A stretch of DNA of 32,000 nucleotides from Thermofilum adornatum (GCF_000446015.1 NC_022093.1:1710001-1742000); one strand, 5' to 3'; positions 1,212 through 31,554 are shown, counted from the first letter of the stretch. Program-made: numbers and translations. The notes: generated by a model not told the origin, from the letters alone.

Positions 1212-1236
1212 TTTTTTCTTTTTCTATCCTATTTTT
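1212..1236 (+). terminator. oligo-T termination tract after the peroxiredoxin gene
   Basis: T6 (1212-1217), T5 (1219-1223) and T5 (1232-1236) begin 6 nt after the TAA stop. Archaeal RNAP terminates at oligo-T runs. Confidence 0.5.
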
Positions 1237-1448: not shown

Positions 1449-1548
1449 GTAGACCTCTGCGTCTGGGAGGACTCTTTTTGCGGCCTCTGCTATTTTTTCT
1501 GTGTATGGTCTCCAGTTTTTGAGTATTTTTGCTCTCTCGATTAGTGCC

Positions 1549-3396: not shown

Positions 3397-3586
3397 CCAA
3401 AATGGCATCGACTTTCCAGTAAGTATTCATGCTCGGAGTAGTTCTTCTAGCTGTCAAGTATAGTTTGTTTCTTAACGGCTCTCTGTCTTCCCTTACATGT
3501 TTCACAATTCTTTCGATACTTATAGCCTCCAAAACGTCACGTAGTTTTTCTAGCCCTTTCTTCTTTGTTTCCATTTTAGATTTCAT
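3344..3586 (-). CDS. hypothetical small basic protein (weak call)
   Basis: An 80-aa ORF in the nurA-herA spacer with a K/E/R-rich helical-looking N-terminal half (KGLEKLRDVLEAISIERIVKHVREDRE). Its last ~17 codons overlap the nurA 3' end convergently. The opposite-strand ORF 3429..3662 is S/L-rich shadow. No family recognised. Confidence 0.3.
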   Translation of the reverse strand: MKSKMETKKKGLEKLRDVLEAISIERIVKHVREDREPLRNKLYLTARRTTPSMNTYWKVDAILVRDRRIFYRYVNASPVF

Positions 3587-3740
3587 AGAACAAGCTCGCC
3601 TTTTTTGGATACTTTCGGTTTTATCTTGGTGGAAGCTTAATAAGGACTATAATGTGGGGTAATATTGTGGAAAAAGAGGCTACCAAGAGAATGGGTTATC
3701 CTTTAAGAGATAAGGTGGATTTTTCCCGAGGGAACCAGGC

Positions 3741-5342: not shown

Positions 5343-5345
5343 GAC

Positions 5346-6515
5346 ATGATTAGGGTCGTCCACACGGCTGACAATCACTTGGACCCAAAGTTCAGCTTCC
5401 TCGGCGCTAAGAGGTTTGAGCGTAGACAGGACTTCTTCAACTCTTTCCGCAGAGTTGTAGAGTTTGCCCTAGAGAGAAAGGCCCACATTGTTCTGGTTTC
5501 GGGAGACCTCTTCGACTCTGTCAATCCGAGAAACCCGATAAGGACGCAGGTCATAAGGCTATTCAGGAGGCTGTCCAGCGAGGGCATCAGGGTCTTCATG
5601 ATTGCTGGCAACCATGACATGCCGAGGAGCCTGGAGGAGGGAATGTCTCCACTACAGGAAATAGAGGCCGCCGGCTATGCGAGGTTCTTCTCGAAGACCA
5701 GCGAGGTCGAGGTCGAGCACCTCTACATTGAGGGTTTAGACGTAGCTATAACAGGCCTGAGCTATGACCACACTGTTGGGCTAGACGAGAACCCGCTGAA
5801 AAAGAACAATGTAAAGCTTCCAGATGAGGGCGACGTCGCGATAGCCATGCTTCACTACAACTTTAGCGGGATAAGTGTACCGCCGAGCTGGAGGGCCCCC
5901 AAGGTTTCATGGGAAGACATCCCAGAAAACTACCGCTACGTTGCTCTTGGACACGTGCATACAAGCATGACCCTTCCACTCAGGGGAAAGACCCTTGTAG
6001 CTTATCCTGGAAGCACAGAGAGGAGAAGCTTCCAAGAAGAGGGAGACGAGGCAAAGGGCTTCCTATATGTAGAGCTAGGCCATGACTCTCTGCCAAGGGC
6101 AGAGTTTGTCCCAGTGCCAACGAGGCCAATGAAGACTGTAAAGGTAACGCTGAGCGAAGAAACGGAGGACCCGTTGAGAGAAATCGTGTCCAGGCTACCG
6201 GCACCCAACAAAGACCTTTTGCTTCGACTCGTCGTTGACGGAACGCTTCCCTTAAACAAGGTGTCTAGGTACAACAGGGCGGCACTGCTTAGAGAACTCG
6301 AGGAAAGGTTCTTCGCCGCCACAATTGATGATATTGACCTCAAGTGCACCATGCAGAAAATAGTCAGCATGGGCAACGAGGTGAAGAGCCCGATAGAGGC
6401 CTTTGAGGAAGCAGTAAGGGAGCTACTTTCTAAGGCGGAGGGCGAAGAAAGGGAAGTCTTCAACTTGGCGCTTGAAATTGGTAGAAAGGTTCTAGAGGAG
6501 AGCGGGGCATGGTGA
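5346..6515 (+). CDS. mre11: Mre11 nuclease (calcineurin-like phosphoesterase)
   Basis: Phosphoesterase motifs HTADNHLD, VSGDLFD, IAGNHD and GHVH are present. The stop overlaps the rad50 start (ATGGTGA). Confidence 0.92.
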   Translation: MIRVVHTADNHLDPKFSFLGAKRFERRQDFFNSFRRVVEFALERKAHIVLVSGDLFDSVNPRNPIRTQVIRLFRRLSSEGIRVFMIAGNHDMPRSLEEGMSPLQEIEAAGYARFFSKTSEVEVEHLYIEGLDVAITGLSYDHTVGLDENPLKKNNVKLPDEGDVAIAMLHYNFSGISVPPSWRAPKVSWEDIPENYRYVALGHVHTSMTLPLRGKTLVAYPGSTERRSFQEEGDEAKGFLYVELGHDSLPRAEFVPVPTRPMKTVKVTLSEETEDPLREIVSRLPAPNKDLLLRLVVDGTLPLNKVSRYNRAALLRELEERFFAATIDDIDLKCTMQKIVSMGNEVKSPIEAFEEAVRELLSKAEGEEREVFNLALEIGRKVLEESGAW

Positions 6516-18132: not shown

Positions 18133-18298
18133 AAAAAAGGAATGTGTGATGCAGGGATAATAAAGTTACGCAAATCTATGGGAGAAAGGGGCGGCATGAA
18201 ATTTATATGTCTGTCTGCACATTTATATATTGATCCGGTAGGATCGCGCCTCGACTGCCCCGTATGTGGGCTGGATGAAAAGGCGCCCGGGAAAACAC

Positions 18299-18305
18299 AA
18301 AAAAA
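18299..18305 (-). terminator. T7 tract after the second binding-protein gene
   Basis: The minus strand reads TAA-ATTTC-TTTTTTT, 5 nt after the stop at 18311. Confidence 0.45.
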
Positions 18306-18310
18306 GAAAT

Positions 18311-19840
18311 TTATTTTTTGGGCTTTCTCCTAAGCAGTAAAACTGTAGCTAACACTATCACTAATACAATTATAGCCAGGACAATGTACAGAGTAAAGTC
18401 TTGTGCAGGCTGTTGTGGCTGAGCGGGTTTCGTGGGCTGTGTTGGCTGTTGTTGTGCTGGTTGTTGTGGCGGATACAGGTTGACCTCTACTGGGGGTGTA
18501 ACGCTTTTAACTGTGTCTATGTATTGTGGAGCAAACATTCCAATTTTGAGGAGGGGCTTGTAGAGGTCTGGTAGATCCTGCTCGGTATAGTATTTGGCAA
18601 GAGAGGTTGTATCCCACACTATTTGTGCAATATACATGTCCTGTACTGTTCTGTGGTCTTCTTTTCTTATCTTTATGTCTCCCTTCACAGATGTAAATGT
18701 GAGGCCTTCAAGCGCGTTGATTAGTTTTTCAGAGTCTGTTGAGCCGCCGGTCTTCTTTAATGCTAGTCCAAGCGCATGGCCAGCCACGAATCCCTCGCCG
18801 ACAAAAAGGTCTGGCAAGGGGAAGGCTATGAGGACTGAGCCCATCGTTGGAAGTGCTTTTTTCTTGTAGAGTTCAACATACTTTGAGACAAGCCAGTCGT
18901 TGACTGGGTTATTCTGTGGTAGGTTCCAAGCATACTTCATCATTCCCTTGTAGTTGGGCAGGTATAGGCCCATTTTTAATAGGTTCAGGGTTGCTAGGTC
19001 TGGTATGCCTGAGGTGACTTTCATCTTTTGGTAAACTCCTGAAGCGTTTATCTGTTGGTAGAGTGTTAGAGCTGTTGCTCCACTCCATACGGGAATGAAT
19101 ACCTCTGCCTTTGAGGCCAGGAGAGACTGGATGTAGGGCGTAAAGTCAGTGGTTGTTACGGGGGCATATATTGCGGCGACAACGCTTCCTCCTTTCTGTT
19201 GAATGATTGTTGACCAGGCATCGACAGTAGAGCGTCCCCAGGAGTTGCTCGGTGCTAGGAATGCAACTGTTTTGCCGAGGGTGGTGGCAAATGTTCCACC
19301 TGCAATTGCGTCGTGCCAAGTTGTACTTGAAATCTGGAAAACGTACCTGTTTAGGTAGGTCTTGGTTATCTCGTGGTCAGCGGCAGGGACAACCAAGAAT
19401 ACGACCTTGTATTTTTGGGCTATCTGTGTGAGGGCGATAGCTGACGGGCTGTCTGAACAGCCTACGAGTATCTCGGCTCCCTTGTTTTGTATCAAGTCCT
19501 CTGCTGCTTTTGTAGCTGTGGCTGGGTCTGGGATTTGCTGGCCGGCTGGAACATTGGTTGCCGCTATGATGTGTATTGTTTTGCCTTGCCAGTTAAGTTT
19601 CCATTCTAGGTTTGGCGTAACTGTCTCGAAGCTCGGTATCTCTAGCGCGTACATGAGTCCAAGAATGAAGCCGTTAATTGACATGTCGCCATAGTAGCTT
19701 AGTGCACCTGTCCTGTCGGTAACGATGCCTATAACGATTTCATTGGGGTTCTGGGCCTTGACGTTTATTGGTACAAAGGCTAGTGCTATTAGTGCTATCA
19801 AGAGGAGGGAGAGACTTTTAGCTCGTTCTTTTGTTGTCAT
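18311..19840 (-). CDS. LIV-type substrate-binding protein with signal peptide and C-terminal Q/P linker plus TM anchor
   Basis: N-terminal signal-like LSLLLIALIALAFVPINVKAQNP and a type-I PBP-sized body. The C-terminus is PPQQPAQQQPTQPTKPAQPQQPAQDF, then TLYIVLAIIVLVIVLATVLLL, then RRKPKK. Confidence 0.8.
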   Translation of the reverse strand: MTTKERAKSLSLLLIALIALAFVPINVKAQNPNEIVIGIVTDRTGALSYYGDMSINGFILGLMYALEIPSFETVTPNLEWKLNWQGKTIHIIAATNVPAGQQIPDPATATKAAEDLIQNKGAEILVGCSDSPSAIALTQIAQKYKVVFLVVPAADHEITKTYLNRYVFQISSTTWHDAIAGGTFATTLGKTVAFLAPSNSWGRSTVDAWSTIIQQKGGSVVAAIYAPVTTTDFTPYIQSLLASKAEVFIPVWSGATALTLYQQINASGVYQKMKVTSGIPDLATLNLLKMGLYLPNYKGMMKYAWNLPQNNPVNDWLVSKYVELYKKKALPTMGSVLIAFPLPDLFVGEGFVAGHALGLALKKTGGSTDSEKLINALEGLTFTSVKGDIKIRKEDHRTVQDMYIAQIVWDTTSLAKYYTEQDLPDLYKPLLKIGMFAPQYIDTVKSVTPPVEVNLYPPQQPAQQQPTQPTKPAQPQQPAQDFTLYIVLAIIVLVIVLATVLLLRRKPKK

Positions 19841-19877
19841 ACGGTTGTAATAATAATTTCTTATTCAATAAAAAAAG

Positions 19878-19884
19878 GGTTAAC
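19878..19884. promoter_or_regulatory. GGTTAAC half-site abutting the TATA-like tract of the binding-protein gene promoter
   Basis: The minus strand reads GTTAACC-CTTTTTTTATTGAATAAG.. with ATG at 19840, 38 nt from the motif end. Confidence 0.5.
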
Positions 19885-19910
19885 TACTATTTCTGGGCTC
19901 TATCTGCCTT

Positions 19911-20927
19911 TTATATCCAGCGGAAGATTGCGCTTGCCATGACGAAGCCTACTCCAGAAGTGATGAACTGTATGTAGTCTCCCTTCTTAATCTTGCCCTG
20001 TGTTAGAGTATCGTGTAGAGCCATGAATACGCAGGCAGATCCAGTGTATCCATATTTCTCCATGATGGTTGGGGCCTTCTCGATTGGCTGTCCAAGTAGC
20101 CTCATCAGCTGGTGGATCATCTCTCTGTTTACCTGTGTGACGAAGTAGTAGCTTATGTCGTTGGCTGTTAAATTTGCCTTTTTCTGTACCTCTTGTGCGA
20201 GTCCTGGCCAGTGGCGAAGGTTTATGTCGGGTGGATACCTTTTAAGGTACCTCAGCTTGTGCCATCCCTCCTTTACGACGTTCTCGTTTACTGGTCTTGC
20301 ACCCCCTATGTATATGCCCCAGTAGTCTGTATAACTACCATCCGCAATTATTTTTCCAGTAATGTAGCCAGGTTCACTTGATGGGCCAAGAATGACGGCT
20401 CCAGCTCCGTCAGAGAAAATGGAGGCAGTCACGTCTTGTGGGTCAATAAATTTGGTCATCGTGTAAGGTGAAACTACCAAGACATAGTTGACGTCTTCGT
20501 TGAGCATGATGTTCTGTGCCGCAAGCATGAGGGCTATTGTGTTGTCTGCACAGGCCGCGTTTATGTCGAAGCCTCCCGTTTTTAGTTTTGCGCCTAGCTT
20601 CTGGTGAACTGCACAAACTGTTGGTGGGGTCTGGAAGTCTGGGGTATCTGTTGCGAATATGATAAGGTCGATATCGTCTATAGTGAGGTTGGCGTTTTGA
20701 AGAGCCATTCTAGCGGCTTCTGCGGCTAGATCCGAGGGGGCCTGGTCTGGCGCAGAGACGTATCGGTGTTTGATGCCTATGCGGTTTTCTAGTGCATTTC
20801 TCCATGCATCGGGGAGCTTGAGACCAAAGAACTTTTCATAGTCATCGTTAGTTACTAGTGTTTTTCCAAGGGCTATGCCCGTGCTCACTATCCTGGCATA
20901 TTTTTTTATTTCAGGCTTCGTAGCCAT
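19911..20927 (-). CDS. KAS III (FabH)-like thiolase-fold enzyme with atypical catalytic residues
   Basis: FabH-like blocks ATDTPDFQTPPTVCAVHQKLG, FDINAACADNTIAL (active-site Cys retained), SDGAGAVILG and the C-terminal GVGFVMASAIFRW. The start is ATG 20927, or TTG 20930 as in the track. Confidence 0.75.
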   Translation of the reverse strand: MATKPEIKKYARIVSTGIALGKTLVTNDDYEKFFGLKLPDAWRNALENRIGIKHRYVSAPDQAPSDLAAEAARMALQNANLTIDDIDLIIFATDTPDFQTPPTVCAVHQKLGAKLKTGGFDINAACADNTIALMLAAQNIMLNEDVNYVLVVSPYTMTKFIDPQDVTASIFSDGAGAVILGPSSEPGYITGKIIADGSYTDYWGIYIGGARPVNENVVKEGWHKLRYLKRYPPDINLRHWPGLAQEVQKKANLTANDISYYFVTQVNREMIHQLMRLLGQPIEKAPTIMEKYGYTGSACVFMALHDTLTQGKIKKGDYIQFITSGVGFVMASAIFRWI

Positions 20928-20963
20928 CAAAATACTCTGGGAAAAATCCTATAAAATAAAAAC

Positions 20964-20970
20964 GGTTAAC
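20964..20970. promoter_or_regulatory. GGTTAAC half-site abutting the TATA-like tract of the KAS III-like gene promoter
   Basis: The minus strand reads GTTAACC-GTTTTTATTTTATAGG.. with ATG at 20927, 37 nt from the motif end. Confidence 0.5.
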
Positions 20971-20983
20971 TATTTCCCGAAAC

Positions 20984-22213
20984 CTAAAAGATGCTTTCGA
21001 TCTTTCTCTTGAGCTTCCAGCCTTTAAGCAACCATGTACCGTATATACCGTAAGGTAATGCCAGGACAACTATTATGTAGAGGAGTCCGAGAATAAAGCT
21101 GGGGAAGAGTTGCAGTTGTTGGAGTGACAGGAAGCCTAGTGATATGAGTGCTGGAGTTATCGTTGAAAGGTAGTCTCTAAGGAAGCCAGCAAGGATACCG
21201 CCAATAGCTGGTCCAACGAATGTGCCGAGACCACCCAGTATAGCACCAGTCATGGCAATGAAGGTCTTATCGGTTGCGAAGACGTCTGGCTGGATTGTAG
21301 GTATGCAGGCGACGTACACGCTTCCGGCTACCCCTGCAAAGACGCCTGAAATAAAGAAAGCTATTAACTGGTGGAGAAAAACGTTGTAGCCTATAACAGA
21401 TGCCCTTACCGGATTCTCCCTTATTGCTATAAATGTGCTTCCCAGAGGGGATGTGATGATTCTCTTAATCAACAGATATGATATGTAGAGGCTAAGGAGA
21501 GAGACTAGGTACACGTTAAGAGGATATACAAATCGCAGGATTCTTACATAAGGAAGACCTGAACCTACTTCATGGAGGAATGTTGCCGAGGAGCTAAAGA
21601 TTACGTACCCACTATAACCTAAGAAGATAAAGAGCAATAAGACAATCAGTGTTTTGAGAACTTTCTGGCGTTTCCGCTTTGTGCTAATGATGTCTATCAT
21701 CCCGGTCACAAGTGATAGAGCAAGAAATATTGTGAAGAGGGCGAGGTAGAGGTACAGCCCTTCAAGTGAAGCCATCTCAGGTATCGTACCTACCGTCACA
21801 GCAACAGTGGTTTGGGCAGAGTACTCAATAGTAGCTCTAATGGCTTCCGAAATAGCAAGCGTTAAGATACCATAGTACAGTCCCCTAACACGGTAGCCGG
21901 GAAGACCCATGCCGACATAAACAGCTCCCGAAATAAGTGCGGCGGGAATAAGAGATAGAAGGAACGGGACACCCTGCTTGAGAAGCACCGCCGTAATAAA
22001 GGCAGCAACACCGAATGGAACTGCGTGCCCGAAGCTTGGGATTCCCGCGAAACCCAAAACTATGTTGTAGCTTAGTGCAAGTAGAGCCCATACAAATGTC
22101 AGGGGAATGCCTGTAGCCAGTGACCTGTCTAGCCATGGAATGGCAAGGAGTATTGTTAAGGACAAGTATCCAAGAAACCTATTAGGCAACAAGTAGTTCC
22201 TTAGTTTCTCCAT
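20984..22213 (-). CDS. livM: LIV-type ABC transporter permease, LivM-like (long form)
   Basis: A polytopic membrane protein of 409 aa in the LivM position of operon 2. The conserved C-terminal half reads SPLGSTFIAIRENPVRASVIGYN... Confidence 0.85.
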   Translation of the reverse strand: MEKLRNYLLPNRFLGYLSLTILLAIPWLDRSLATGIPLTFVWALLALSYNIVLGFAGIPSFGHAVPFGVAAFITAVLLKQGVPFLLSLIPAALISGAVYVGMGLPGYRVRGLYYGILTLAISEAIRATIEYSAQTTVAVTVGTIPEMASLEGLYLYLALFTIFLALSLVTGMIDIISTKRKRQKVLKTLIVLLLFIFLGYSGYVIFSSSATFLHEVGSGLPYVRILRFVYPLNVYLVSLLSLYISYLLIKRIITSPLGSTFIAIRENPVRASVIGYNVFLHQLIAFFISGVFAGVAGSVYVACIPTIQPDVFATDKTFIAMTGAILGGLGTFVGPAIGGILAGFLRDYLSTITPALISLGFLSLQQLQLFPSFILGLLYIIVVLALPYGIYGTWLLKGWKLKRKIESIF

Positions 22214-22217
22214 TTTC

Positions 22218-23090
22218 TCACCTCTTGAATAATCCTTCTGGTTTAACCACTAGGACAACTATCATGACTATGAGATCTATCGCAAAGCCCAGTTGGGGTA
22301 TAAAGTAGGCTACAAGCCTGTCGACAAATCCTATCAGTAGACTCGCATAGAAGGCTCCCGAATAACTTTTCATGCCTCCTACCACGGGGATAGCGAATGC
22401 TAGAAGTGAAAAGTGGACAGGGAGCTCTATGGTTGCATGCGTCAGTGGAGCAACTAGTGCGCCACCCAGTAGTGCCAGGGCGACGCCAAATGTAAATGCA
22501 GACGTGAAGAGCATCGAGATATCTACACCGAAGACTGTAGCGAGCTCTCGGTTCTCTGTCCCCGCCCTAAGCTTTATACCAATCATGGTTTTTGAAAGAA
22601 GTGTACTCATGGTGCCGAATAGGACAAATCCAATCGCTATAAGAACAAACTTATAGATCCTTATCCTGACATCTGCTAGCTGTATATATCCTGACAACAA
22701 GAAGTTTTGAGTCTCCGGAAATACGAGCCCTGTTGGCCATATTAGTTGCATAAAGGTATACAATAGAGTCATTAGTCCCATGGTAAGTAGTAATTGTGCT
22801 AATGGATTCCCGTATACCGGCCGTATTATTGCTCTCTCGGTTAGAAGACCAAGGACTATCCCTATAAGAAAAGTTAACAATAGGCTCAACAGGAAGTTAT
22901 TCGTCATGTAATAAAACGTCACAAAGAGATATGCTCCTAGTCCAAAAAAGGCGCCCTGTGCTAGGTTAAAGACATCCATTAAGCCAAAAATAATCACAAG
23001 TCCTATGGCTGCAAGGTAGATCATTGATGAATAAGTCAACCCGTCTATAACTGCGCTTAGAATCAATTCAGGTGAAACCATATCCACCAC
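22218..23090 (-). CDS. livH: LIV-type ABC transporter permease, LivH-like
   Basis: A polytopic membrane protein of 290 aa with the FNLAQGAFFGLGAY block. It directly abuts the livF-like gene. Confidence 0.85.
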   Translation of the reverse strand: MVDMVSPELILSAVIDGLTYSSMIYLAAIGLVIIFGLMDVFNLAQGAFFGLGAYLFVTFYYMTNNFLLSLLLTFLIGIVLGLLTERAIIRPVYGNPLAQLLLTMGLMTLLYTFMQLIWPTGLVFPETQNFLLSGYIQLADVRIRIYKFVLIAIGFVLFGTMSTLLSKTMIGIKLRAGTENRELATVFGVDISMLFTSAFTFGVALALLGGALVAPLTHATIELPVHFSLLAFAIPVVGGMKSYSGAFYASLLIGFVDRLVAYFIPQLGFAIDLIVMIVVLVVKPEGLFKR

Positions 23091-23852
23091 CTATAAGCTT
23101 ACACCCAGGATTCTCCTTATTACATGATTGTTTTCTTCTATTTTTTCCGAGGGAAAACCTGTCACCACAACACCTTTATCCATCAGGTAAATGTAATCTG
23201 TTATTTCGCGGGCGTAAGCAAAGTTCTGTTCAATCAATAGTATTGTCTTCTTATTTTCAAGCATGTAGTGCCTCAGCTGCCTGTAGAAGTTTTTAACATA
23301 AGCTGGGCTTAGACCCTCAGATGGCTCATCTAGTATGAGAAGATCATGCTCCCTTACCAGTCCACATGCAAGTGCAAGCATTCTTTGCTGACCGCCGCTA
23401 AGTTCTCCTGCTAGGAGGCCAGAGAACCGTTTAAGCTCTGGGAAAAGATTCATTACCATTTCAAGCTTGTCGTCGAATTTTTCCTTTGGGCCATTATAGG
23501 CTAGCTTAAGGTTCTCAATGACGGTAAGGTTTGCAAATACATTTTTCTCTGCTGGGACAAAACTTATTCCCCTCTTGACTATGCTATGCGTTGGGAAATT
23601 AGTGATGTTCTCTCCTTTGAAAAACACTTCTCCCCTAGCTGCCTTATATATTCCCATTATTGTTTTTAGAGTTGTTGTTTTTCCCACGCCATTTCTACCT
23701 AGAATGGCCGTGAGCTTGTATTCTTCCGCTTCGAAGTTTACTCCTTGAAGTATATGGAAGCCGCCTATATATGCATGAAGATCCTTTACTTTCAGAATTG
23801 GAGACGCCACATCATTCACCCAGGTAGATTTTCTGAACCTCCCTATTCTCAA
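23091..23852 (-). CDS. livF: LIV-type ABC transporter ATP-binding protein, LivF-like
   Basis: Walker A GRNGVGKTT, signature LSGGQQRML, Walker B LILDEPSEGLSP. The start is uncertain: ATG 23852 gives a 41-nt overlap with livG, while in-frame GTGs at 23819 or 23810 give a short or no overlap. Confidence 0.88.
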   Translation of the reverse strand: MRIGRFRKSTWVNDVASPILKVKDLHAYIGGFHILQGVNFEAEEYKLTAILGRNGVGKTTTLKTIMGIYKAARGEVFFKGENITNFPTHSIVKRGISFVPAEKNVFANLTVIENLKLAYNGPKEKFDDKLEMVMNLFPELKRFSGLLAGELSGGQQRMLALACGLVREHDLLILDEPSEGLSPAYVKNFYRQLRHYMLENKKTILLIEQNFAYAREITDYIYLMDKGVVVTGFPSEKIEENNHVIRRILGVSL

Positions 23853-24564
23853 CTATCTCTTTGGGAGACCCTTCCGCGAGAATACTTCCCTGATTCATTA
23901 CGCTGACTTTGTCTGCTACTTCGAGAACAACATCTATTTTGTGCTCGATCACTACAACTGTTTTCTTCATTTCGTCTCTCAGCTTTTTAATGAGACGTAC
24001 AATTGGTGCTACCTCCTCTAGAGATACGCCGGCCGTGGGCTCATCTAATGCTATGAGCTTTGGGTTTCCAGCAAGGGCAATAGCGATTTCTAGTTTCCGT
24101 TTGTCGCCTGGGGTGAGGCTACTTGCCAAAATGTTTGTCTTGCCGTAGAGGCCAGTTATGGAGGCAATCCGCATGGCTTCCCAGACAACATCTTTGTAAT
24201 GGCTTGTTGGATGAATGAAGTCCCATCTCACGTTTTTCCATTTTGCTTGGACAGCAAGCCTTATGTTTTCGAGAACAGTAAGGTTTGGGAAAATCGAATA
24301 TATTTGGAAAGACCTTGTTAGACCCAGGGAGCTAATGTAGTGAGGGGGTTTACCAGTTATATCTCTGTCCTCAAAATACACTTTACCACTTGTAGGTTTG
24401 AGGACTCCAGTAATCAAGTTAAATAGCGTTGTTTTCCCAGCACCGTTGGGACCTATTATAGCATGAACCGTGCCCTGCGCCACCTTCAGGTTAACATTGC
24501 TGACAGCTACGAGTCCACCGAAGCTCTTTGTGAGATTTTCTGTGCGTAGAATTATGCCTGACAT
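23812..24564 (-). CDS. livG: LIV-type ABC transporter ATP-binding protein, LivG-like
   Basis: TKSFGGLVAV, Walker A GPNGAGKTT, Walker B LIALDEPTAGV and the C-terminal QKIYLGE. Confidence 0.9.
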   Translation of the reverse strand: MSGIILRTENLTKSFGGLVAVSNVNLKVAQGTVHAIIGPNGAGKTTLFNLITGVLKPTSGKVYFEDRDITGKPPHYISSLGLTRSFQIYSIFPNLTVLENIRLAVQAKWKNVRWDFIHPTSHYKDVVWEAMRIASITGLYGKTNILASSLTPGDKRKLEIAIALAGNPKLIALDEPTAGVSLEEVAPIVRLIKKLRDEMKKTVVVIEHKIDVVLEVADKVSVMNQGSILAEGSPKEIVENREVQKIYLGE

Positions 24565-24565
24565 G

Positions 24566-25345
24566 TTAGATGCCCCTGAAAAATTCTAGCAATAATTGGT
24601 TGTATTCTTCGGGTCTTTCCCTGTGGGGCATGTGTCCTACGCCTTTCATTATGTGCGCCTTTGAGGTAGGCACCATGGCGTGCATTTCTTCGACGACCTC
24701 TGGTGGGGATATGTAGTCTAGCTCTCCAGAAATGAAGAGAACAGGGTTCCTAAGTGATCTGATTATGTCTCTGTAGCTTTTTTCTGTCGCAGCTTCAGCG
24801 CTCTGTATGTAGACACGTTTATCAGTTCGTGAGATTATCTCATAGATTTCTCGTTTTAATTCGGTAGATGCGTATGGCGACACAGCGAACTCAGCTACTT
24901 GGCTGGCTATTTCATGCATAGACATGTTTTCAAGAACTTCTGTCATTGCTGGTGGGTATTCAGGTGCAATGGCTTCGAGGACAATCTTCTCAAATCTTTG
25001 TAGATACAAGCGGTAAAGCTCTAGCAGGACTAGGCCGCCCATTGAGTAGCCTACCATGAGCGCTTTCTCTATCTTTTCGGCTTCGAGGACGCTTTCTACG
25101 TCTCTAGCAAAATCCTCCATTGATATCCTTTTTGGGGGAATCTGGCTTTCGCCGTGCCCGCGAAGGTCTAGTGCTAATACCCTGTACCCCCTAGCTGGGA
25201 AGAACTCTAACTGGGGTTTCCATGTAAGATGGCTTTCGCCCAAGCCGTGTACGAAGATTATTGGTGTTCCATTTCCTTCAGCAACATAGTGTATCTTTAT
25301 ACCGTCTTTTGATTTTGCATACCTGTGCTCTAATCCCTGCGACAT
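24566..25345 (-). CDS. alpha/beta-fold hydrolase
   Basis: HGLGES oxyanion region, nucleophile elbow GYSMGG, then a late Asp (GELDYI) and His (GVGHMP). 1-nt gap to livG. Confidence 0.85.
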   Translation of the reverse strand: MSQGLEHRYAKSKDGIKIHYVAEGNGTPIIFVHGLGESHLTWKPQLEFFPARGYRVLALDLRGHGESQIPPKRISMEDFARDVESVLEAEKIEKALMVGYSMGGLVLLELYRLYLQRFEKIVLEAIAPEYPPAMTEVLENMSMHEIASQVAEFAVSPYASTELKREIYEIISRTDKRVYIQSAEAATEKSYRDIIRSLRNPVLFISGELDYISPPEVVEEMHAMVPTSKAHIMKGVGHMPHRERPEEYNQLLLEFFRGI

Positions 25346-25347
25346 TT

Positions 25348-26145
25348 TTATTTCACCTCTCCCTTAAGAAAATTCGACACCAGTACATTAATTTCGCCCG
25401 GTTTTTCCCAAATAGAGACATGCCCACTTTCAACTTCAGCATATTTTCCATTGGGAAGCTCCTCAACTATCAACTTGGAGTATCTAGGCGGGAAGAATCT
25501 GTCATGAGTGCTGGCAACAACAAGAGTTGGCATTGTTAGTTTGGAGAGCTTTCCCCTCAGATCGAGCCTAAGAAAAGCTTTAATCATCTCTTCGAATGCT
25601 ACCATGTCTACAAGCTCGAAGTTAGGTGCCAAAGAAGAAATAAAGGAGAAACTGTTATTGATGAACTCGTCTGAGAATATGTCCGGAATCATTACTTGCC
25701 ACAGGAATCTACCTGACTTAAGCCGTGCCGCCAAAATCCACCTGTCGGCACGCAGTCTCAAGGCCTTGTCTACGGTGTGCGACGAATTTAGAATTACGAG
25801 TTTTTCGACTTGCTCGGAGAAGGCTAGCGCAGTAGCCAATGCTACTTTTCCGCCATAAGAGATGCCTGCAAGCGTAAAAGTGTTAATGCCCAAGTAATCT
25901 AACAGTTCCTTCAAGTCAGAAACATGTCTATCAATACTATAACCTGTCCTCGGCTTATCACTTTGTCCCTGACCACGCATATCATGTAGAACTACCTTAT
26001 AGCCTAGGTTCCTCAGATATTCTGCTTGAAGCCTCCATCCTACAGTATTCATCGTTATGCCATTGAGTAGCACTACCGTCTTTTCCCCTTCACCTTCGAC
26101 CTCGTAATAGATCTTTATACCGTCCGTTGTAGTGAAATACGCCAT
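25348..26145 (-). CDS. alpha/beta-fold hydrolase (distant tandem paralogue)
   Basis: Nucleophile elbow GISYGG, Asp region STHDRF, His region ESGHVS. It shares the N-terminal DGIKI(H/Y)Y block with its neighbour. Confidence 0.85.
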   Translation of the reverse strand: MAYFTTTDGIKIYYEVEGEGEKTVVLLNGITMNTVGWRLQAEYLRNLGYKVVLHDMRGQGQSDKPRTGYSIDRHVSDLKELLDYLGINTFTLAGISYGGKVALATALAFSEQVEKLVILNSSHTVDKALRLRADRWILAARLKSGRFLWQVMIPDIFSDEFINNSFSFISSLAPNFELVDMVAFEEMIKAFLRLDLRGKLSKLTMPTLVVASTHDRFFPPRYSKLIVEELPNGKYAEVESGHVSIWEKPGEINVLVSNFLKGEVK

Positions 26146-26150
26146 GGATC

Positions 26151-27722
26151 CTACACCTCTAACTTGTCTTCAGGTTTTCCATAAAGGATTTTAAGAGGCT
26201 GGCGAGCCACCTTCCCAGTCTCCGTGTAGACAAGTTGGGGAACAACTTCTACATACTTTGGTATTTTGTATTTCGCGAGCTTGTCTTTCAAGAAATCTAT
26301 GACTTCTTCTTTCGTTATCTTTTCTCCCTCCTTAAGTACAATCAATGCCTTTGGAACCTCCCCCCACTTGGGGTCAGGGACTCCTATAACCACTGCATCC
26401 TTAATCTTTGGATGCATAATCAAAAGCCTCTCAATTTCTTCTGGATACACGCTCTCTTCACCACTCCTAATGATGTTCTTAATTCTCCCAGCTATCCAGA
26501 AATAGCCTTCCTCATCTACCCTAGCAACGTCTCCCGTAGCCAGCCATCCATCCTTTATAATAGACTTCATCTCTTCCTCGTTTTTCAGGTATCCTGAAAA
26601 CACGCTTGGACCCCTTAGGTACAGCTCGCCCTCAACACCTCTGGGAGCCTCACTTCCATCTGGAAGAACAACCCTGGCCTCTATCAATAGGTTCGGTTTC
26701 CCAATCGACCCCATTTTCCTCTTAGCGTCCCATGGATCGAGAGCAAAAATACCTGGACCCATCTCGGTCATCCCAAAACCTTGTTTCTGGACAACACCCT
26801 TCTCAAATATTTTCTCGATGATGTCTGGCGTTAACGCTCCCCCGCCGCTTGTAAACCACCTAACGGATGAAAAGTCTGCGTCCTTGAAACGGGGCGAAGC
26901 AAGCAACATCCTAAGTTGCGTCGGAACCAGGAAGAGAAATGTTGGTCTCTCCTCTTCTACGAGGTCAATAAACCTATCAACATTCCATCTTCGCATTAGA
27001 ATACTTGTCCCTCCAAACATTAATAGAGGGATTAGATATGTGAAGGCACCAATGTGGAAGAGAGGTAACGTGTTGATTGTGACGTCGCCAGGTATAACCA
27101 AGTCCCTAACAGTGTTCAAGGCGTTCCAGAGAATCATCCTGTGACTTACTATTGTAAATTTTGGCTTTCCAGTTGTTCCACCAGTTTGTAGTATTAGGGC
27201 GGGGTCTTCGAGGCAACACGCCGTCGAGACATCATTGGAAGAGTATTTCTCATAATTAAACTCGTTTGGACAGTCATAGCACACTTTCTTCGTCTCTATG
27301 TTAGAGACGGTTTCTGAAAATTCTTTTTCATATAGGAGAACTTTTGGATTGACTTTATCAACAAACTCTTGAATTTCACGTGAAGTGTACCTCGTGTTTA
27401 TAGGAGCTAGGACACAGCCAATCTTGAAACATGCAAGAAGCGTGGCAACAAACTCTATGCGGCTCCACGAAAGAATAGCTACATAATCTCCCTTGCTTAT
27501 TCCGAAATTTTCCCGAAGAAAATTAGCAATCTTGTTGGACATCTCGTTTAGCTGTGCAAAGGACACCGTACGTAAGGGTATCGTTAGGTCGTCCTTGAGT
27601 GCTATCCAATTACCACTTATATCTGCTCTACGAGCTATCCAGTTGTTGACCCATTTTCCACACGTATAGATTCTCTCCAGAGACATATAATGCATGTTAA
27701 TAGGTGAAATCGTGTTATACAT
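26151..27722 (-). CDS. AMP-forming acyl-CoA synthetase/ligase (ANL superfamily)
   Basis: AMP-binding motifs TGGTTGKPK, GFGMTE, WLATGDV and GRIKNIIRSGEESVYPEEIE. The start is ambiguous between Met1, Met10 and Met13 (see findings). Confidence 0.9.
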   Translation of the reverse strand: MYNTISPINMHYMSLERIYTCGKWVNNWIARRADISGNWIALKDDLTIPLRTVSFAQLNEMSNKIANFLRENFGISKGDYVAILSWSRIEFVATLLACFKIGCVLAPINTRYTSREIQEFVDKVNPKVLLYEKEFSETVSNIETKKVCYDCPNEFNYEKYSSNDVSTACCLEDPALILQTGGTTGKPKFTIVSHRMILWNALNTVRDLVIPGDVTINTLPLFHIGAFTYLIPLLMFGGTSILMRRWNVDRFIDLVEEERPTFLFLVPTQLRMLLASPRFKDADFSSVRWFTSGGGALTPDIIEKIFEKGVVQKQGFGMTEMGPGIFALDPWDAKRKMGSIGKPNLLIEARVVLPDGSEAPRGVEGELYLRGPSVFSGYLKNEEEMKSIIKDGWLATGDVARVDEEGYFWIAGRIKNIIRSGEESVYPEEIERLLIMHPKIKDAVVIGVPDPKWGEVPKALIVLKEGEKITKEEVIDFLKDKLAKYKIPKYVEVVPQLVYTETGKVARQPLKILYGKPEDKLEV

Positions 27723-27726
27723 TTTA

Positions 27727-27743
27727 GGTTAACATTGTTAACC
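27727..27743. promoter_or_regulatory. perfect 17-bp palindromic operator candidate GGTTAACATTGTTAACC
   Basis: 7-3-7 inverted repeat in the divergent spacer between the acyl-CoA synthetase operon and the HTH_10 regulator gene. A near-identical copy lies at 30853..30868. Confidence 0.65.
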
Positions 27744-27880
27744 TTTGACATAATATTAATGACCGGGGTGCCATTCTTATCGTTGCTACAAGGATATTTC
27801 CTTCTCAACGATTAAAAGGTATCTCTTTTTCTATAGTTTTTACGACAGTAGGCTACATTATAAAAACACACTACAGAAAA

Positions 27881-27888
27881 TTTAAATA
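27881..27888 (+). promoter_or_regulatory. TATA-box candidate for the regulator gene
   Basis: TTTAAATA lies 29 nt upstream of ATG 27917. Confidence 0.45.
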
Positions 27889-27916
27889 GTTGTTTTCGTA
27901 ATATTTTGCATGGATA

Positions 27917-28651
27917 ATGATGTACATTGGAGTGTTCGACATTGAGCAATATGATTGCCCCGTTGTTAAATTGACCGAGAAAAGAGAAGGCGTTACAACA
28001 ACAGTTCTATCAGTAAATGTATCTGAACTTTCAAGGGGAGTAGAGCAGATCTTTTTAACAATTAAGAGTTCCGAGCAGGACAAGCTTAAGGACATTCTAG
28101 AAGTCGCGCAAACAATTCCCGAAGTAAAGAACTGTAAAGTACTTGGGAAGTCTGACGATGCATGGAGAATACTCATGAACATTAAAAAGACACATACAAT
28201 GGAGGCTAGTGTAAATCTTGGTGCAATGTTTGTTTCTCCGTGGATTGCGAGAAGCGGCGTTGAGAGGTGGACCCTAGGCTTCATAAGTAAGAAACAGTTC
28301 TACGATTTTCTGTCTTTGATCAGGGAAAGAGACCATGTAAAGAAATACTACTTGACAGAGGTAAAGGAGGAGGACTTTGTAACTGTTTCTGCAAACTATC
28401 TATCTATACTTAAATTGGTTTCGCAACTGAACAAGCTGACCCCCAATCAGCTGAACATGTTAAAGCTGGCTTTGTCTAAGGGATATTATTCGTGGCCGAA
28501 GGGGGTTGATAGCGTTGAACTATCAAGAATGCTAGGCGTTTCTCGTGTGAGTATAATTAAGTCGCTTAGGAAAGCTGAATACAAGGTGCTAGGTCCCGTT
28601 GTAGAATTTGTGTCAATGGTTAAGAAAGATTGGGAGAAAAACTACACTTAA
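27917..28651 (+). CDS. HTH_10 (bacterio-opsin-activator-type) transcription regulator
   Basis: The C-terminal LTPNQLNMLKLALSKGYYSWPKGVDSVELSRMLGVSRVSIIKSLRKAEYKVL matches the HTH_10 pattern LTxrQrevLxxAyexGYFexPRxxxxxeLAexLGisxstxxehLRrAexKl. The N-terminal ~165 aa are unassigned. Confidence 0.75.
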   Translation: MMYIGVFDIEQYDCPVVKLTEKREGVTTTVLSVNVSELSRGVEQIFLTIKSSEQDKLKDILEVAQTIPEVKNCKVLGKSDDAWRILMNIKKTHTMEASVNLGAMFVSPWIARSGVERWTLGFISKKQFYDFLSLIRERDHVKKYYLTEVKEEDFVTVSANYLSILKLVSQLNKLTPNQLNMLKLALSKGYYSWPKGVDSVELSRMLGVSRVSIIKSLRKAEYKVLGPVVEFVSMVKKDWEKNYT

Positions 28652-28655
28652 ATAA

Positions 28656-28669
28656 TTTTTTTATTTTTT
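28656..28669 (+). terminator. oligo-T tract after the regulator gene
   Basis: T7 (28656-28662) and T6 (28664-28669) begin 5 nt after the TAA stop. Confidence 0.5.
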
Positions 28670-28671
28670 CT

Positions 28672-29646
28672 CTAAGCCAGTGGAGATGCAATAGTGGTTC
28701 CTAGGTCTATGGGTATCACTATTCCTGTGAGTGCCTCGTTTTCCACCACGTGGTATGCCAATTTAGCAATTTCTTCCGGCTCGACGAGTCTCGCTATTGG
28801 AATCCTCCTTAAGTATTCTTGGAGGATCGGTGAAGGCACTGCGAGAGCCATCCTAGTCTTGGCGAATCCTGGAGCTATAGCTACGACTCTGATACCGTAG
28901 GGGGCAAGCTCCTTTGCAAGCGTCTTAGTGAGACCTATGAGTCCCGCCTTAGAAGCCGCATAATTTGCCTGGGCAATGTTTCCAAGCAATCCTACAATTG
29001 ACGAAATATTGATGATTACTCCCCCGCCGTTCCTTTTCATTATTGGGAAAACAGCTTTTGAGCATAGGAAAGCTCCCTTTAGATTCACATTTAATACGCT
29101 GTCCCAGTCTTCGTCCTTCATTCTCTCTAGATAAGTGTCACGTGTTATGCCAGCATTGTTTACCAATACATCGATCCGGCCGGCCAGCCGTAAAGCCTCT
29201 GATATGCCCTTAGAAACACTCTCACTCTTGCTGACGTCCATCTCTACGAAGTATGCCTCTACACCTAGGTTCTTTATAGCTTCGAGAGTTTTTTCTGCTT
29301 CCTGATCTCTCACTATATCCGCAATGACGACGTTGTAACCGTGCCGAGCAAACTCTAGTGATATTGCCGCTCCTATGCCTCTGCTTCCCCCGGTAACAAG
29401 GACGACTTTTCTTGGCTGATCGACACGCGGGATAAATACTGGGATTTTGCCGAAGACTGTCAATTCTTCTGTGAGTTCTCCTTCAGCTCCCTCCTTTACA
29501 AGCCCCATGTATTTTTGAGGTATTCTCGCGATTCTTTTTTCTCCATTTCCATTCTCAACTATGGCGACGATGTACGTAGACTTGTAGGGCTCTACAGGGG
29601 TCAGCAATTCGGTAAATATTCTTACTTTCCACGCCATTCCCTTCAC
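28672..29646 (-). CDS. fusion protein: DUF35-like OB-fold domain + FabG-type short-chain dehydrogenase/reductase (3-oxoacyl reductase-like)
   Basis: The C-terminal 245 aa form a classical SDR: TGGSRGIG, NNAG and the S..YAASK triad. The N-terminal ~78 aa (AWKVRIFTELLTPVEPYKSTYIVAIVENGNGEKRIARIPQ..GELTEELTVFGKIPVFIP) look like the OB-fold half of DUF35/acyl-CoA-associated proteins, without the Zn ribbon. GTGA start/stop overlap with the thiolase gene. Confidence 0.75.
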   Translation of the reverse strand: MKGMAWKVRIFTELLTPVEPYKSTYIVAIVENGNGEKRIARIPQKYMGLVKEGAEGELTEELTVFGKIPVFIPRVDQPRKVVLVTGGSRGIGAAISLEFARHGYNVVIADIVRDQEAEKTLEAIKNLGVEAYFVEMDVSKSESVSKGISEALRLAGRIDVLVNNAGITRDTYLERMKDEDWDSVLNVNLKGAFLCSKAVFPIMKRNGGGVIINISSIVGLLGNIAQANYAASKAGLIGLTKTLAKELAPYGIRVVAIAPGFAKTRMALAVPSPILQEYLRRIPIARLVEPEEIAKLAYHVVENEALTGIVIPIDLGTTIASPLA

Positions 29647-30818
29647 CTCTCAAAAACGATAACTACTGAAGTTGCCCCAGTCCCACCATGATTCTCAACT
29701 AAGCCTCTTTCTGCATCTTTCACTTGCCTGGCCCCGGCCTCACCCCTTAGCTGCCAGTATACCTCTGCGACCATGCCTACACCCGTTGCACCAATGGGGT
29801 GTCCCTTAGCCTTCAACCCACCACTTGGGTTTACTGGCTTAGATCCTGTGAATGCTGTTACCCCGTCCCTAATCAGCTTGTAGCCTTCGCCTCTCTGTGC
29901 AAGCCCAAGCATCTCGTAGAGAATTATCTCAGCGATTGTAAAGGCGTCGTGGACTTCGAAAAGGTCTATCTTTTCTGGGCCATATCCACTCATCTTGTAA
30001 GCTTCTTGGGCGGCTTGCCTGGCCGCCTCGATAGCTGACATGTCTTTTCTTTGGTAGACCCCTGAATAATCATGCTTCATAGCTATGCCGCTGATGTAGA
30101 CGGGTGTATCAGTATACTTTTTAGGCTCCGAGCTCATGAGAAGGGCTACGGCCCCATCGGAGAGTGGCGAGGCATCAAATAGTTTTAGGGGCGGTGATAT
30201 GTATGGAGACTTCAAGACGTCTTCAACTGTGATCTTCTTCTGAAACTGGGCGAGCGGGTTTCTTGTAGCGTTTTCATGGTTCTTTACGGCGACCAAGGCT
30301 AGGTCCTCTTCCTTTGCCCCGTAGCGGTTCATGTATTCTCTAGCTATTAAAGCATAGAGGCTTAGAAATGGAGCCCCCACTTTGTACTCTTCTGGCGCAC
30401 TTGTACGCATCAAGATCTCATTCGACTTTGCAGACGTCCCCACAGTGCTCATTTTTTCAAAGCCAACAATCAGGGCGTTTTTAAAGAAGCCAGCACTGAG
30501 AAGCTTGTGTGCAAGATAAACAGCTGTTGTACCAGCTGCACAGGCATTTTCAACCCTGAAGCCCGTAGCGTTTAGGTTCCCAATGTAGCTTGCTACAAGG
30601 GGGGCTGTATGCAGTAAGCCCCCGAAGGAGTCACTGTAGTTGGAGACTATGATTAGGTCTATTTCCTGCGGAGAAATCCCCTTCTCAACGCTTTTCAGGG
30701 CTCCCTCGACAGCTTCACGTATCATTTCGTGTGTCTCCTTTTGACTCCTGGCCTCATACTTTGTGCTATAGGCTCCTACAACGCCTATTCTACCGTTTTG
30801 GGGCGTTAGTGTCACCAA
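29643..30818 (-). CDS. thiolase-like acetyl/acyl-CoA C-acyltransferase (archaeal SCP-x/DUF35-associated type)
   Basis: Thiolase blocks RVENACAAGTTAVYLA (nucleophilic Cys), GHPIGATGVGM and NHGGTGAT. TTG 30818 or GTG 30815 start. Confidence 0.85.
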   Translation of the reverse strand: MVTLTPQNGRIGVVGAYSTKYEARSQKETHEMIREAVEGALKSVEKGISPQEIDLIIVSNYSDSFGGLLHTAPLVASYIGNLNATGFRVENACAAGTTAVYLAHKLLSAGFFKNALIVGFEKMSTVGTSAKSNEILMRTSAPEEYKVGAPFLSLYALIAREYMNRYGAKEEDLALVAVKNHENATRNPLAQFQKKITVEDVLKSPYISPPLKLFDASPLSDGAVALLMSSEPKKYTDTPVYISGIAMKHDYSGVYQRKDMSAIEAARQAAQEAYKMSGYGPEKIDLFEVHDAFTIAEIILYEMLGLAQRGEGYKLIRDGVTAFTGSKPVNPSGGLKAKGHPIGATGVGMVAEVYWQLRGEAGARQVKDAERGLVENHGGTGATSVVIVFER

Positions 30819-30852
30819 ATAGGAAATTTCAACACTTGCCTAAAAGCGGAGA

Positions 30853-30868
30853 GGTTAACATTGTTACC
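30853..30868. promoter_or_regulatory. second copy of the operator candidate (GGTTAACATTGTTACC)
   Basis: Identical to 27727..27743 except for one missing A in the right arm. It lies 35-38 nt upstream of the thiolase start and is followed on the minus strand by TCTCCGCTTTTAGG. Confidence 0.6.
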
Positions 30869-30881
30869 TAGATAGAAATAG

Positions 30882-30887
30882 AAAAAA
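30882..30887 (-). terminator. T6 tract directly after the secreted-enzyme gene stop
   Basis: The minus strand reads TAA-TTTTTT immediately after the stop at 30888. Confidence 0.45.
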
Positions 30888-31502
30888 TTAGAAGCCCAGG
30901 TCGCTTAGCCAGAGGGTGTATACATCTGAATCAGCCACTATTTCTCCTGGAAGAACGCCGTACCAGTTTTGCGGCAACCAGTAGTACGCGTCGATATCGA
31001 CGCCTGTCGTAGCCTTGTATGCCGCCCAGACAAGCTCAGAGCAGTAATAGGATGGGCCATATACTTGTTTGTAGTATCCGTTATAGTCGTATGTATAGCC
31101 AAGCTTGGAGTACGCCCAGTTGGCGGCACTTAGGGCTTGTGAGTCTGTCACGCCTTTGACCCTCAGAATTATGACAGCACTATAACGGGACATGAATTCG
31201 CTTAGAGTGTTTATTCTTACACCCTCGAATAGTGCCTCTACAACCAGCCAGTCGCCAATTGTTGGATCATATTTGTATAAAATGCCCGCATGGGACCAGT
31301 AGCCCACTATGGTATATTCCTGTCCAGGGTAATGACCAATTACGATGTCGCCTGGTCTAAGCGAGACGTTTGGATAGGGGTGCACGAAGTAGCCGTATGG
31401 GTGATAACTGTCGCTCGAGGAAGCCTGGAGCACAGGCATAGTAAAAGCCAGGAAAAACAGTAGCATGAAAAATGGTGCTGTGAATTGTTTCTTTTTTATC
31501 AT
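30888..31502 (-). CDS. secreted permuted papain-fold (NlpC/P60 superfamily, YiiX/YaeF-like) enzyme
   Basis: N-terminal signal-like FTAPFFMLLFFLAFTMPVLQASS. Block order is GDIVIGH.., then WSHAGILY (His), VVEALFEGV and YDYNGYY, and finally YYCSELVWAAY (Cys). His before Cys is the circular permutation of the YiiX/YaeF family. Confidence 0.6.
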   Translation of the reverse strand: MIKKKQFTAPFFMLLFFLAFTMPVLQASSSDSYHPYGYFVHPYPNVSLRPGDIVIGHYPGQEYTIVGYWSHAGILYKYDPTIGDWLVVEALFEGVRINTLSEFMSRYSAVIILRVKGVTDSQALSAANWAYSKLGYTYDYNGYYKQVYGPSYYCSELVWAAYKATTGVDIDAYYWLPQNWYGVLPGEIVADSDVYTLWLSDLGF

Positions 31503-31546
31503 TTGTCGATCAATATCTAGCCTTTTAAGATAAATAAAAGCATGTT

Positions 31547-31554
31547 GGTTAACC
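31547..31554. promoter_or_regulatory. GGTTAACC (self-complementary) motif in a divergent promoter spacer
   Basis: It lies between TATA-like tracts for the minus-strand gene (start 31502) and the plus-strand gene (start 31601). The right flank TTGGTTAACC resembles ATTGTTAACC of the main palindrome. Confidence 0.45.

Follow-up and report, generated by a model that had tools for sequence, protein, structure and literature searches.

To our knowledge, very few archaeal transcription activators are understood mechanistically. Those that have been described bind just upstream of the TFB recognition element (BRE) and accompany a weak BRE or TATA box, whereas archaeal repressors overlap the BRE/TATA region or lie downstream of it (PMC5512572, PMC4706686). 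At the EarA boxes (fla, Methanococcus), the TFB-RF1 site (pf1089, Pyrococcus), the ara-box (Saccharolobus) and the Ptr2 sites (Methanocaldococcus), a short site abuts a BRE that is off consensus, and recruitment of TFB or the TATA-binding protein (TBP) has been proposed (PMC5512572, PMC4706686). For fatty-acid and lipid metabolism, the sole characterised archaeal regulator is the TetR-type FadR of Sulfolobus. In this study, the word GTTAACC was analysed in a stretch of 32,000 nt of the genome of the hyperthermophile Thermofilum adornatum (GCF_000446015.1, NC_022093.1:1710001-1742000; hereafter the window), where it recurs in the short spacers of a cluster of genes for acyl and ester metabolism. 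As at the promoters listed above, the site abuts the BRE position. The BRE slot, as placed by a heuristic TATA call, is pyrimidine-rich.

It is rather likely that GTTAACC is the operator of a regulator with an HTH_10 domain that is encoded within the cluster, and that it serves seven transcription units, probably by activation through TFB at a weak BRE. An earlier note on this DNA had suggested that a gene-specific factor, restricted to this block of genes, binds at the upstream border of the BRE/TATA region and could recruit or block TFB/TBP there. That suggestion is supported by the absence of the word from 42 control promoters, by footprinting across orthologous promoters, and by a related element at the promoters of thiolase-SDR (short-chain dehydrogenase/reductase) genes in distant orders.

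Location of the motif in the window

An exact search of both strands of the window gave eight matches to GTTAACC, at 19878-, 20964-, 24489-, 27727-, 27737+, 30853- and 31547-/31548+ (the sign denotes the strand). This search confirmed the coordinates and the count of the earlier note, and added the position of the intragenic copy at 24489. The total number of matches is unremarkable: the window-wide excess was approximately two-fold, and shuffled sequences had a mean of 3.4 matches and reached a count of eight in 3/100 cases. The signal is carried by the location. Gene calls were transferred from near-identical contigs (L022 and L001), and the non-coding share of the window was computed as 8.0%, close to the 7% estimated previously. 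The exact two-strand count, split by these gene calls, placed seven of the eight strand-matches in non-coding DNA, as had been claimed, compared with 0.36 expected under a first-order Markov model of non-coding DNA (P ~1e-7, or ~4e-5 with five independent loci). All seven were confined to the spacers of the block from 19.8 to 31.6 kb, which add up to 526 nt and for which the expected number was 0.07.

The possibility that many intragenic copies had been missed was raised in the earlier note; a single copy was found. It lies at 24489-24495, approximately 70 nt past the start of a gene for an ABC ATPase, was not kept in any of the four related genomes L018-L021 described below, and was treated as a chance occurrence. 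Avoidance of the HpaI site (GTTAAC) was also considered, and no depletion was seen (11 copies in the window, five of them coding). An Rfam scan of the window gave no match, and a structured RNA was rejected.

Absence of the motif from other promoters

A panel of 42 control promoters was assembled from the left half of the window and the 10 kb that precede it (L022), from the flanks of the cluster in L001 and L018-L021, and from the regulator's own promoters. The panel included a paralogous Liv-type ABC operon. In the 80 nt next to the start codon, none of the 42 control promoters carried an exact copy of the motif. This agrees with the earlier observation that the peroxiredoxin and first ABC-operon promoters lack the motif, and the occurrence at unrelated promoters that had been named as a potential objection was not seen in the sampled set. 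A word with one mismatch was present somewhere in 7/42 control promoters, which is near the chance expectation. For T. adornatum alone, in which approximately 60 kb of the 1.75-Mb genome was sampled, the motif was present in all seven cluster promoters and in 0/20 controls. In addition, an expectation-maximisation motif search on the pooled promoters, which was given a TATA-like seed, arrived at T[GT]TTAACC; the motif was thus recovered de novo, although this had not been the aim of the search.

A generic promoter element was rejected, both on the panel of 42 sampled control promoters and on the slot of 7 nt that separates the motif from the TATA box. The HerA promoter contains GTTATCC, with one mismatch to the motif, 39 nt from the start codon; this was judged to be a chance occurrence.

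Conservation in the Thermofilaceae

Five Thermofilaceae loci were compared, namely that of T. adornatum (L001/window) and those of four diverged genomes (L018-L021), which include Infirmifilum and another Thermofilum. The close orthologous loci were retrieved by exact-protein look-up; a contig scan yielded distant relatives only. Among the orthologous cluster promoters, GTTAACC was exact in 23/32 and present with at most one mismatch in 30/32. The gap between motif and start codon fell outside 36-46 nt in three orthologous promoters, and this probably reflects the start-codon calls. When orthologous promoters were anchored on the motif, their identity was 0.95 in the seven motif columns compared with 0.48-0.59 in the flanks. 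When non-homologous promoters were aligned in the same way, identity was 0.93 in the motif and 0.33 in the flanks. The GTTAACC site is under purifying selection at a fixed position, and the combination of enrichment and conservation excludes a chance origin of the pattern. The state of each individual site in the other genomes is given in Table 1.

Some copies outside this position were also observed. In L019, an extra GTTAAC(C) is located at 8746, between the TATA box and the acyl-CoA ligase start, where T. adornatum has ATTAAC, and both L019 and L021 have an extra GTTAAC(C) at 8696, at +41 within the acyl-CoA ligase coding region. An auxiliary or repressive role is conceivable for these copies. 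In L020, a metagenome-assembled genome (MAG) of Thermofilum sp., the coding region of the thiolase contains GTTAACC at 11792, 11902/11903 and 12494, one of which is the GGTTAACC palindrome; no copy was present at the matching places in the other Thermofilaceae genomes compared.

Architecture of the target promoters

GTTAACC had previously been treated as a plain 7-mer, and the bipartite and dyad forms at 27727-27743 and 30853-30868 had been overlooked. The consensus is bipartite, G[GT]TA[AT][AC]-N3-GTTAACC, and its full form is GGTTAAC-N3-GTTAACC. From position counts, the distal half reads G(-9)-K-T-A-W-M(-4). The promoters of the acyl-CoA ligase (ACS), thiolase-SDR (THL) and ADP-forming acyl-CoA synthetase (ACD) operons have a strong distal half, and the others a weak one. 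The motif is oriented, with a C at +6 (CC proximal) in 20/25 aligned sites.

The promoters also share a conserved T-rich block, at +14..+18 counted from the G of the motif, which was read as the TATA box. The order of elements is the distal half, 3 nt, GTTAACC, a slot of approximately 7 nt at the BRE position (BRE slot) and the TATA box, with the site at approximately -54 to -38. In the earlier note GTTAACC abutted the TATA tract directly, a description that overlooked the slot; in T. adornatum, the slot is spanned by a T-run at two promoters. The distances to the start codon given in the note were confirmed, and over the cluster promoters of the window they are 36-46 nt. At the promoters with a gap of 36-37 nt, the centre of the TATA box is approximately 26.5 nt from the start codon, which, with an inferred transcription start site (TSS), suits leaderless transcripts. 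Leaderless mRNAs are prevalent in the Crenarchaeota.

The two halves of the 27727-27743 dyad were also considered as back-to-back elements of divergent promoters. This reading was rejected, because the distal half of the THL site faces no promoter and because the dyad of L019 and L021 stays with the ACS operon despite an extra gene before the regulator. The THL distal half faces no gene other than the 3' end of the convergent-side gene, and so it is not an element of a second promoter. The earlier note had also pointed to a degenerate CGTAAC-TTTATTATCC in the spacer that precedes the 2-hydroxyacid dehydrogenase gene (18133-18310). It has three mismatches to GTTAACC and no orthologous promoter to set beside it, and was dropped.

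At the THL promoter, the sequence CAAGTGTTGAA (window 30828-30838, minus strand), between the TATA-like CTTTTAGG and the thiolase GTG, was near-invariant in 5/5 Thermofilaceae loci. Its conservation is above that expected for a leader or initiation region, and it may represent either an initiator/5' element or a further site of regulation.

The candidate regulator

The earlier note did not mention the divergent HTH_10 gene inside the cluster, which is the sole regulator gene there and which lies within the cluster in 5/5 Thermofilaceae loci. The proteins of L018-L021 are 67-83% identical to that of the window. The C-terminal HTH_10 domain (PF04967) covers residues 174-225, with a score of 52.2 bits against a Pfam cut-off of 23.1 (E=5e-14). 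In the AlphaFold model (pLDDT, the predicted local distance difference test, 86.5), the N-terminal part is a tandem beta-alpha-beta-beta (ACT/ferredoxin-like) fold, and the HTH resembles sigma-70 region 4. Sequence and fold searches of the PDB gave no informative solved relative of the whole protein, and the Pfam scan gave no GAF or PAS match. A literature search returned nothing that mentions HVO_2525 and nothing on regulation in Thermofilum. In the promoters of the regulator itself, an A-rich BRE stands beside TTTAAATA-like boxes and GTTAACC is absent.

The spacer of approximately 140 nt between the ACS operator and the regulator TATA box (AAATTTAAATA at ~27873), at 27744-27880, contains no open reading frame (ORF) and has no Rfam match. 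L018 and L020 show no conservation of this spacer, and its place is taken by an extra hydrolase gene in L019 and L021.

Related loci in distant orders

The distant set consisted of 14 MAG contigs of Desulfurococcales and Sulfolobales (L004-L017). Homologs of the regulator, 36-43% identical, were present in all 14 loci and always adjoined the thiolase-SDR genes, whose products are 63-68% identical in these orders. KAS-III, hydrolase and Liv-type ABC genes were also found near the distant homologs in 9-10/14 loci, where the contig reaches upstream. Gene order and orientation are changed in the distant clusters, and the whole cluster is co-directional with the regulator. In place of the AMP-forming acyl-CoA ligase, the distant loci have a family-III CoA-transferase (e.g. 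L010 7733-9022). Their thiolase-SDR promoters carry related bipartite elements, with a TATA-like tract approximately 6 nt further downstream; four of these elements are listed in Table 1. The recognition helix varies in parallel with the operator variant across three clades (Table 1), a pattern that is suggestive, with phylogeny as a confounder.

In L004, a long inverted repeat, AATAAACAATT...AATTGTTTATT, is located upstream of the regulator gene.

Mode of action

In the proposed mechanism, a transcription-factor operator would have GTTAACC as its promoter-proximal half. The HTH_10 protein of the cluster would bind this operator, probably as a dimer with one subunit per half-site, in a register of 9-10 bp (approximately one helical turn). 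Once bound, it would help TFB (or TBP) onto weak core promoters, and the outcome would be activation. The N-terminal ACT/ferredoxin-like domain may sense a ligand of the acyl or acyl-CoA type, which is a guess from the genomic context.

Activation by recruitment of TFB, a proposal made by analogy with characterised promoters, has in our judgement slightly better than even chances. It is favoured by the placement of the site upstream of the BRE slot, by the rigid spacing and fixed orientation, and by the pyrimidine-rich slot; the direction of control is taken from the published positional rule for archaeal activators. The BRE slot contained 1.74 purines out of 6 in the target promoters compared with 3.72 out of 6 in the controls (p=3e-6, for a heuristic TATA call and orthologs that are not independent).

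The same operator might be used by the same or another factor as a repressor, which would block TFB/TBP at the BRE until released by an acyl ligand. This is a serious rival, though the less probable reading, and would resemble local repressors of catabolic clusters such as FadR of Sulfolobus and TrmB at the TM promoter. The 3' end of the motif touches the BRE slot, as expected of such a factor, but the T. adornatum sites never overlap the TATA box or the start region. Precedent can be cited for both directions: FadR, the sole fatty-acid regulator characterised in Archaea, represses until acyl-CoA releases it (PMC6449355) and TrmB represses by overlapping BRE/TATA (PMC4706686), whereas the positional rule favours activation from sites upstream of the BRE (PMC5512572, PMC4706686). 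The extra GTTAAC copies of L019/L021, near the ACS start and at +41, are in positions typical of repression. Against this, distance and orientation at the target promoters are unusually fixed, as they are for activators that touch the basal machinery, and the BRE slots of the targets appear non-consensus while the regulator's own promoter is canonical.

It is improbable that the motif is bound by a different factor encoded elsewhere (e.g. of the Lrp/AsnC, TrmB or TetR type) and that the HTH_10 protein has another role. The regulator's own promoter lacks the motif and a small share of the genome was inspected, both of which would be compatible with an outside factor. On the other side, the linkage of the HTH_10 gene to the target genes survives rearrangement across orders, the operator variants track the regulator clades, and no second regulator gene competes for the role within the cluster. 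Very improbable is a reading of GTTAACC as an unusual BRE for an alternative TFB paralog (a promoter class) or, in weaker form, as a generic element or chance, since, near as the motif is to the BRE position, and loosely as GTTAAC resembles the Sulfolobus BRE consensus (RNWAAW), the slot of approximately 7 nt lies between motif and T-rich block, a second half-site that a BRE would not need is found a further 9 bp upstream, and the 42 control promoters sampled are devoid of the motif.

Several points weigh against an HTH_10 operator that acts by activation. The assignment of the regulator comes from conserved linkage only, and the parallel variation of helix and operator, which spans three clades, cannot be separated from phylogeny. 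The three promoters with a weak distal half leave the predicted binding stoichiometry doubtful. The purine statistic depends on the heuristic TATA call and on non-independent orthologs, with no BRE consensus of Thermofilum as a yardstick. The ACC at the 3' end of the motif contacts the BRE slot, and a bound protein could equally exclude TFB, with repression as the result. Given the sampled share of the genome, the regulon may include further genes, or the factor may act more globally. In the literature, no binding, TSS or expression study was found for T. adornatum.

A broader proposal is put forward tentatively. The HTH_10/HVO_2525_N protein may represent the first characterisable member of an unstudied crenarchaeal regulator family, and may activate, from a rigidly placed bipartite upstream activating sequence next to the BRE, an ancient regulon for the scavenging and processing of esters, lipids or fatty acids, with a co-evolving operator, in the Thermofilaceae and the Desulfurococcales/Sulfolobales.

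The gene cluster and its possible role

The coordinates of the sites, of the genes that they precede and of the related elements are presented in Table 1. The spacers in the operon at 20984-27686 are 1-9 nt long, which indicates one transcription unit.

Table 1. Operator sites, promoter elements and genes of the T. adornatum cluster, with operator variants of related loci. Positions are those of the window unless a contig is named.
Feature	Position	Strand	Context	Gap to start codon	State in Thermofilaceae loci
Single GTTAACC	19878..19884	-	Promoter of substrate-binding-protein gene 18311-19840	37 nt to ATG 19840	Kept as gtaGTTAACC in L001, L018, L020; flanks diverge
Single GTTAACC	20964..20970	-	Promoter of FabH/KAS-III-like gene 19911-20927	36 nt to ATG 20927	Kept as taGTTAACC in 5/5 loci
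GGTTAAC-ATT-GTTAACC, perfect 7+3+7 dyad	27727..27743	both	Promoter of acyl-CoA ligase (ACS) operon	40 nt from proximal half to ATG 27686 (gene caller's start)	Kept in L018, L019; single substitution in L020, L021
GGTAAC-AAT-GTTAACC, bipartite	30853..30868	-	Promoter of thiolase-SDR (THL) operon	37 nt to GTG 30815	Kept in L018-L021
Self-complementary GGTTAACC	31547..31554	both	Common to divergent promoters of C92 amidase and 589-aa alpha/beta hydrolase genes	44 nt to ATG 31502 (C92 amidase); 46 nt to ATG 31601 (hydrolase)	Kept in L018, L019; GTTTACC/GTAAACC in L020; GGTTAACA in L021
tGTTATaattGTTAACC, seventh motif-bearing promoter	L001 17666-17672 (~window coordinate 35582, past window end)		Promoter of ADP-forming acyl-CoA synthetase (ACD) operon		Kept in L019, L021; inverted GGTTAAC near start instead in L020
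TATA-like CTTTTAGG	30839..30846	-	6 nt 3' of proximal half of THL site; TCTCCG between is the BRE slot		
Equivalent T-rich blocks	Within 19866-19877 and within 20948-20963				
Operon: AMP-forming acyl-CoA ligase, two alpha/beta hydrolases, two ABC ATPases, two Liv-type permeases	20984..27686	-	Annotation from Pfam, NCBIfam		
Operon: thiolase-domain protein, FabG-like 3-oxoacyl reductase (SDR)	28672..30815	-			
KAS-III-like gene, monocistronic	19911-20927	-	Own motif-bearing promoter		
Liv-type substrate-binding protein gene, monocistronic	18311-19840	-	Own motif-bearing promoter		
C92 permuted-papain amidase gene	30888..31502	-			
Alpha/beta hydrolase gene	31601..window end	+	589 aa in L001		
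Operon: ADP-forming acyl-CoA synthetase (ATP-grasp_5 + CoA_binding/Succ_CoA_lig)	Just past window end				
Candidate regulator gene, 244 aa	27917..28651	+	Divergent, inside cluster; N-terminal PF24279 HVO_2525_N, C-terminal HTH_10		
Bipartite elements of distant loci (examples)			GGTAATCACAGGTAACC, GTAAACATAGGTAACC, GTAAACAGTAGTAAAC, TAAACATTGTTTACC		
Recognition helix SRVSIIKSLRK			Operator GTTAACC		
Recognition helix SRAAVTKLLRR			Operator GTTTACC		
Recognition helix SRVAVAKTLRR			Operator GGTAACC		

Genes for an acyl-CoA dehydrogenase and an enoyl-CoA hydratase are absent from the cluster, and the set for beta-oxidation is therefore incomplete. The role of the module may be either the breakdown of esters and short acyl compounds or the building of acyl chains. 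An archaeal fatty-acid synthase that is independent of the acyl carrier protein, and which consists of a thiolase, an SDR, a dehydratase and a DUF35 protein, has been reported, in work whose coverage does not extend to Thermofilum or to KAS-III-like genes (bioRxiv 10.1101/2024.07.05.601840). Members of the Thermofilaceae depend on other Crenarchaeota for cell components, culture broth or lipid fractions (PMC6965361). That the acyl regulon is tied to this dependence is pure speculation.

The SDR gene (28672-29637, minus strand) encodes an N-terminal extension of approximately 75 aa (~29413-29637) without a Pfam match, and the full-length protein, including the extension, is 61-66% identical in the distant orders. 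This extension might serve for docking or as a scaffold, by analogy with DUF35 in the fatty-acid synthase complex of Sulfolobus.

On its left side, the window contains a peroxiredoxin gene, a nucleotidyltransferase/HEPN pair and NurA-HerA-Mre11-Rad50. The latter four genes form a canonical archaeal operon for DNA-end resection (2092-9022, plus strand). At 1224-1934 (minus strand), a nucleotidyltransferase (MNT) gene adjoins HEPN-domain genes, one of which appears to be split into ORFs of 37 aa and 87 aa. The arrangement probably represents a toxin-antitoxin module of the HEPN/MNT type in which one copy is frameshifted.

Comparison with known systems

The FadR-controlled lipase/beta-oxidation cluster of Sulfolobus acidocaldarius (Saci_1103-1126) resembles the present locus in its local regulator, encoded among esterase, acyl-CoA ligase, thiolase and SDR genes, and in its several dyad-symmetric operators in a crenarchaeal thermophile (PMC6449355). 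FadR is, however, a TetR-family repressor, whereas the candidate regulator here belongs to the HTH_10 type. FadR has four sites with a 16-bp semi-palindromic motif, all but one of which are more than 130 bp from promoters, in contrast to the seven promoter-proximal sites at a fixed position in T. adornatum. Also unlike the FadR regulon, the present cluster has no acyl-CoA dehydrogenase or enoyl-CoA hydratase gene.

Bat of Halobacterium shares with the candidate regulator an HTH_10-type C-terminal domain, and it likewise uses an upstream activating sequence (UAS) 5' to a small co-regulated set of genes (PMC1447603). Its sensor domains are GAF and PAS, where the protein described here has the HVO_2525_N ACT-like domain, and the motif, the phylum and the pathway are unrelated. 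The bop UAS is reportedly located at approximately -52 to -39, the same position as the GTTAACC site.

A palindromic bipartite motif common to many promoters of one metabolic regulon is also a feature of TrmBL1, with the Thermococcales glycolytic motif (TGM), and of SurR, both in Thermococcales. For these regulators, a site upstream of the BRE/TATA region activates and a downstream site represses (PMC4706686). TrmBL1 is a TrmB winged-helix protein, and the TGM occurs on both sides of the promoter, whereas all T. adornatum sites are upstream.

With respect to the EarA, TFB-RF1, ara-box and Ptr2 promoters, the last of which involve an Lrp-type regulator, the present system differs in its motif, in the combination of an HTH_10 and an ACT-like domain, in its occurrence in the Thermoproteota and in its seven-unit acyl/ester regulon. 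The GTTAACC sites were not filed with this group because the regulator family differs and activation here is only inferred.

The locus represents a compact system, with seven promoters, a rigid bipartite site, a single candidate regulator and natural operator variants in other orders. It is suited to a direct comparison of TFB recruitment with BRE occlusion, and could clarify the purpose of a module for hydrolysis, uptake, CoA activation and thiolase-KAS-reductase chemistry in organisms with isoprenoid membranes. Compared with what has been described, GTTAACC and its cluster are a well-supported prediction, drawn from comparative sequence analysis, of a new regulon and a new operator for an uncharacterised regulator family, the mechanism of which would be of a known kind and would introduce no new principle.

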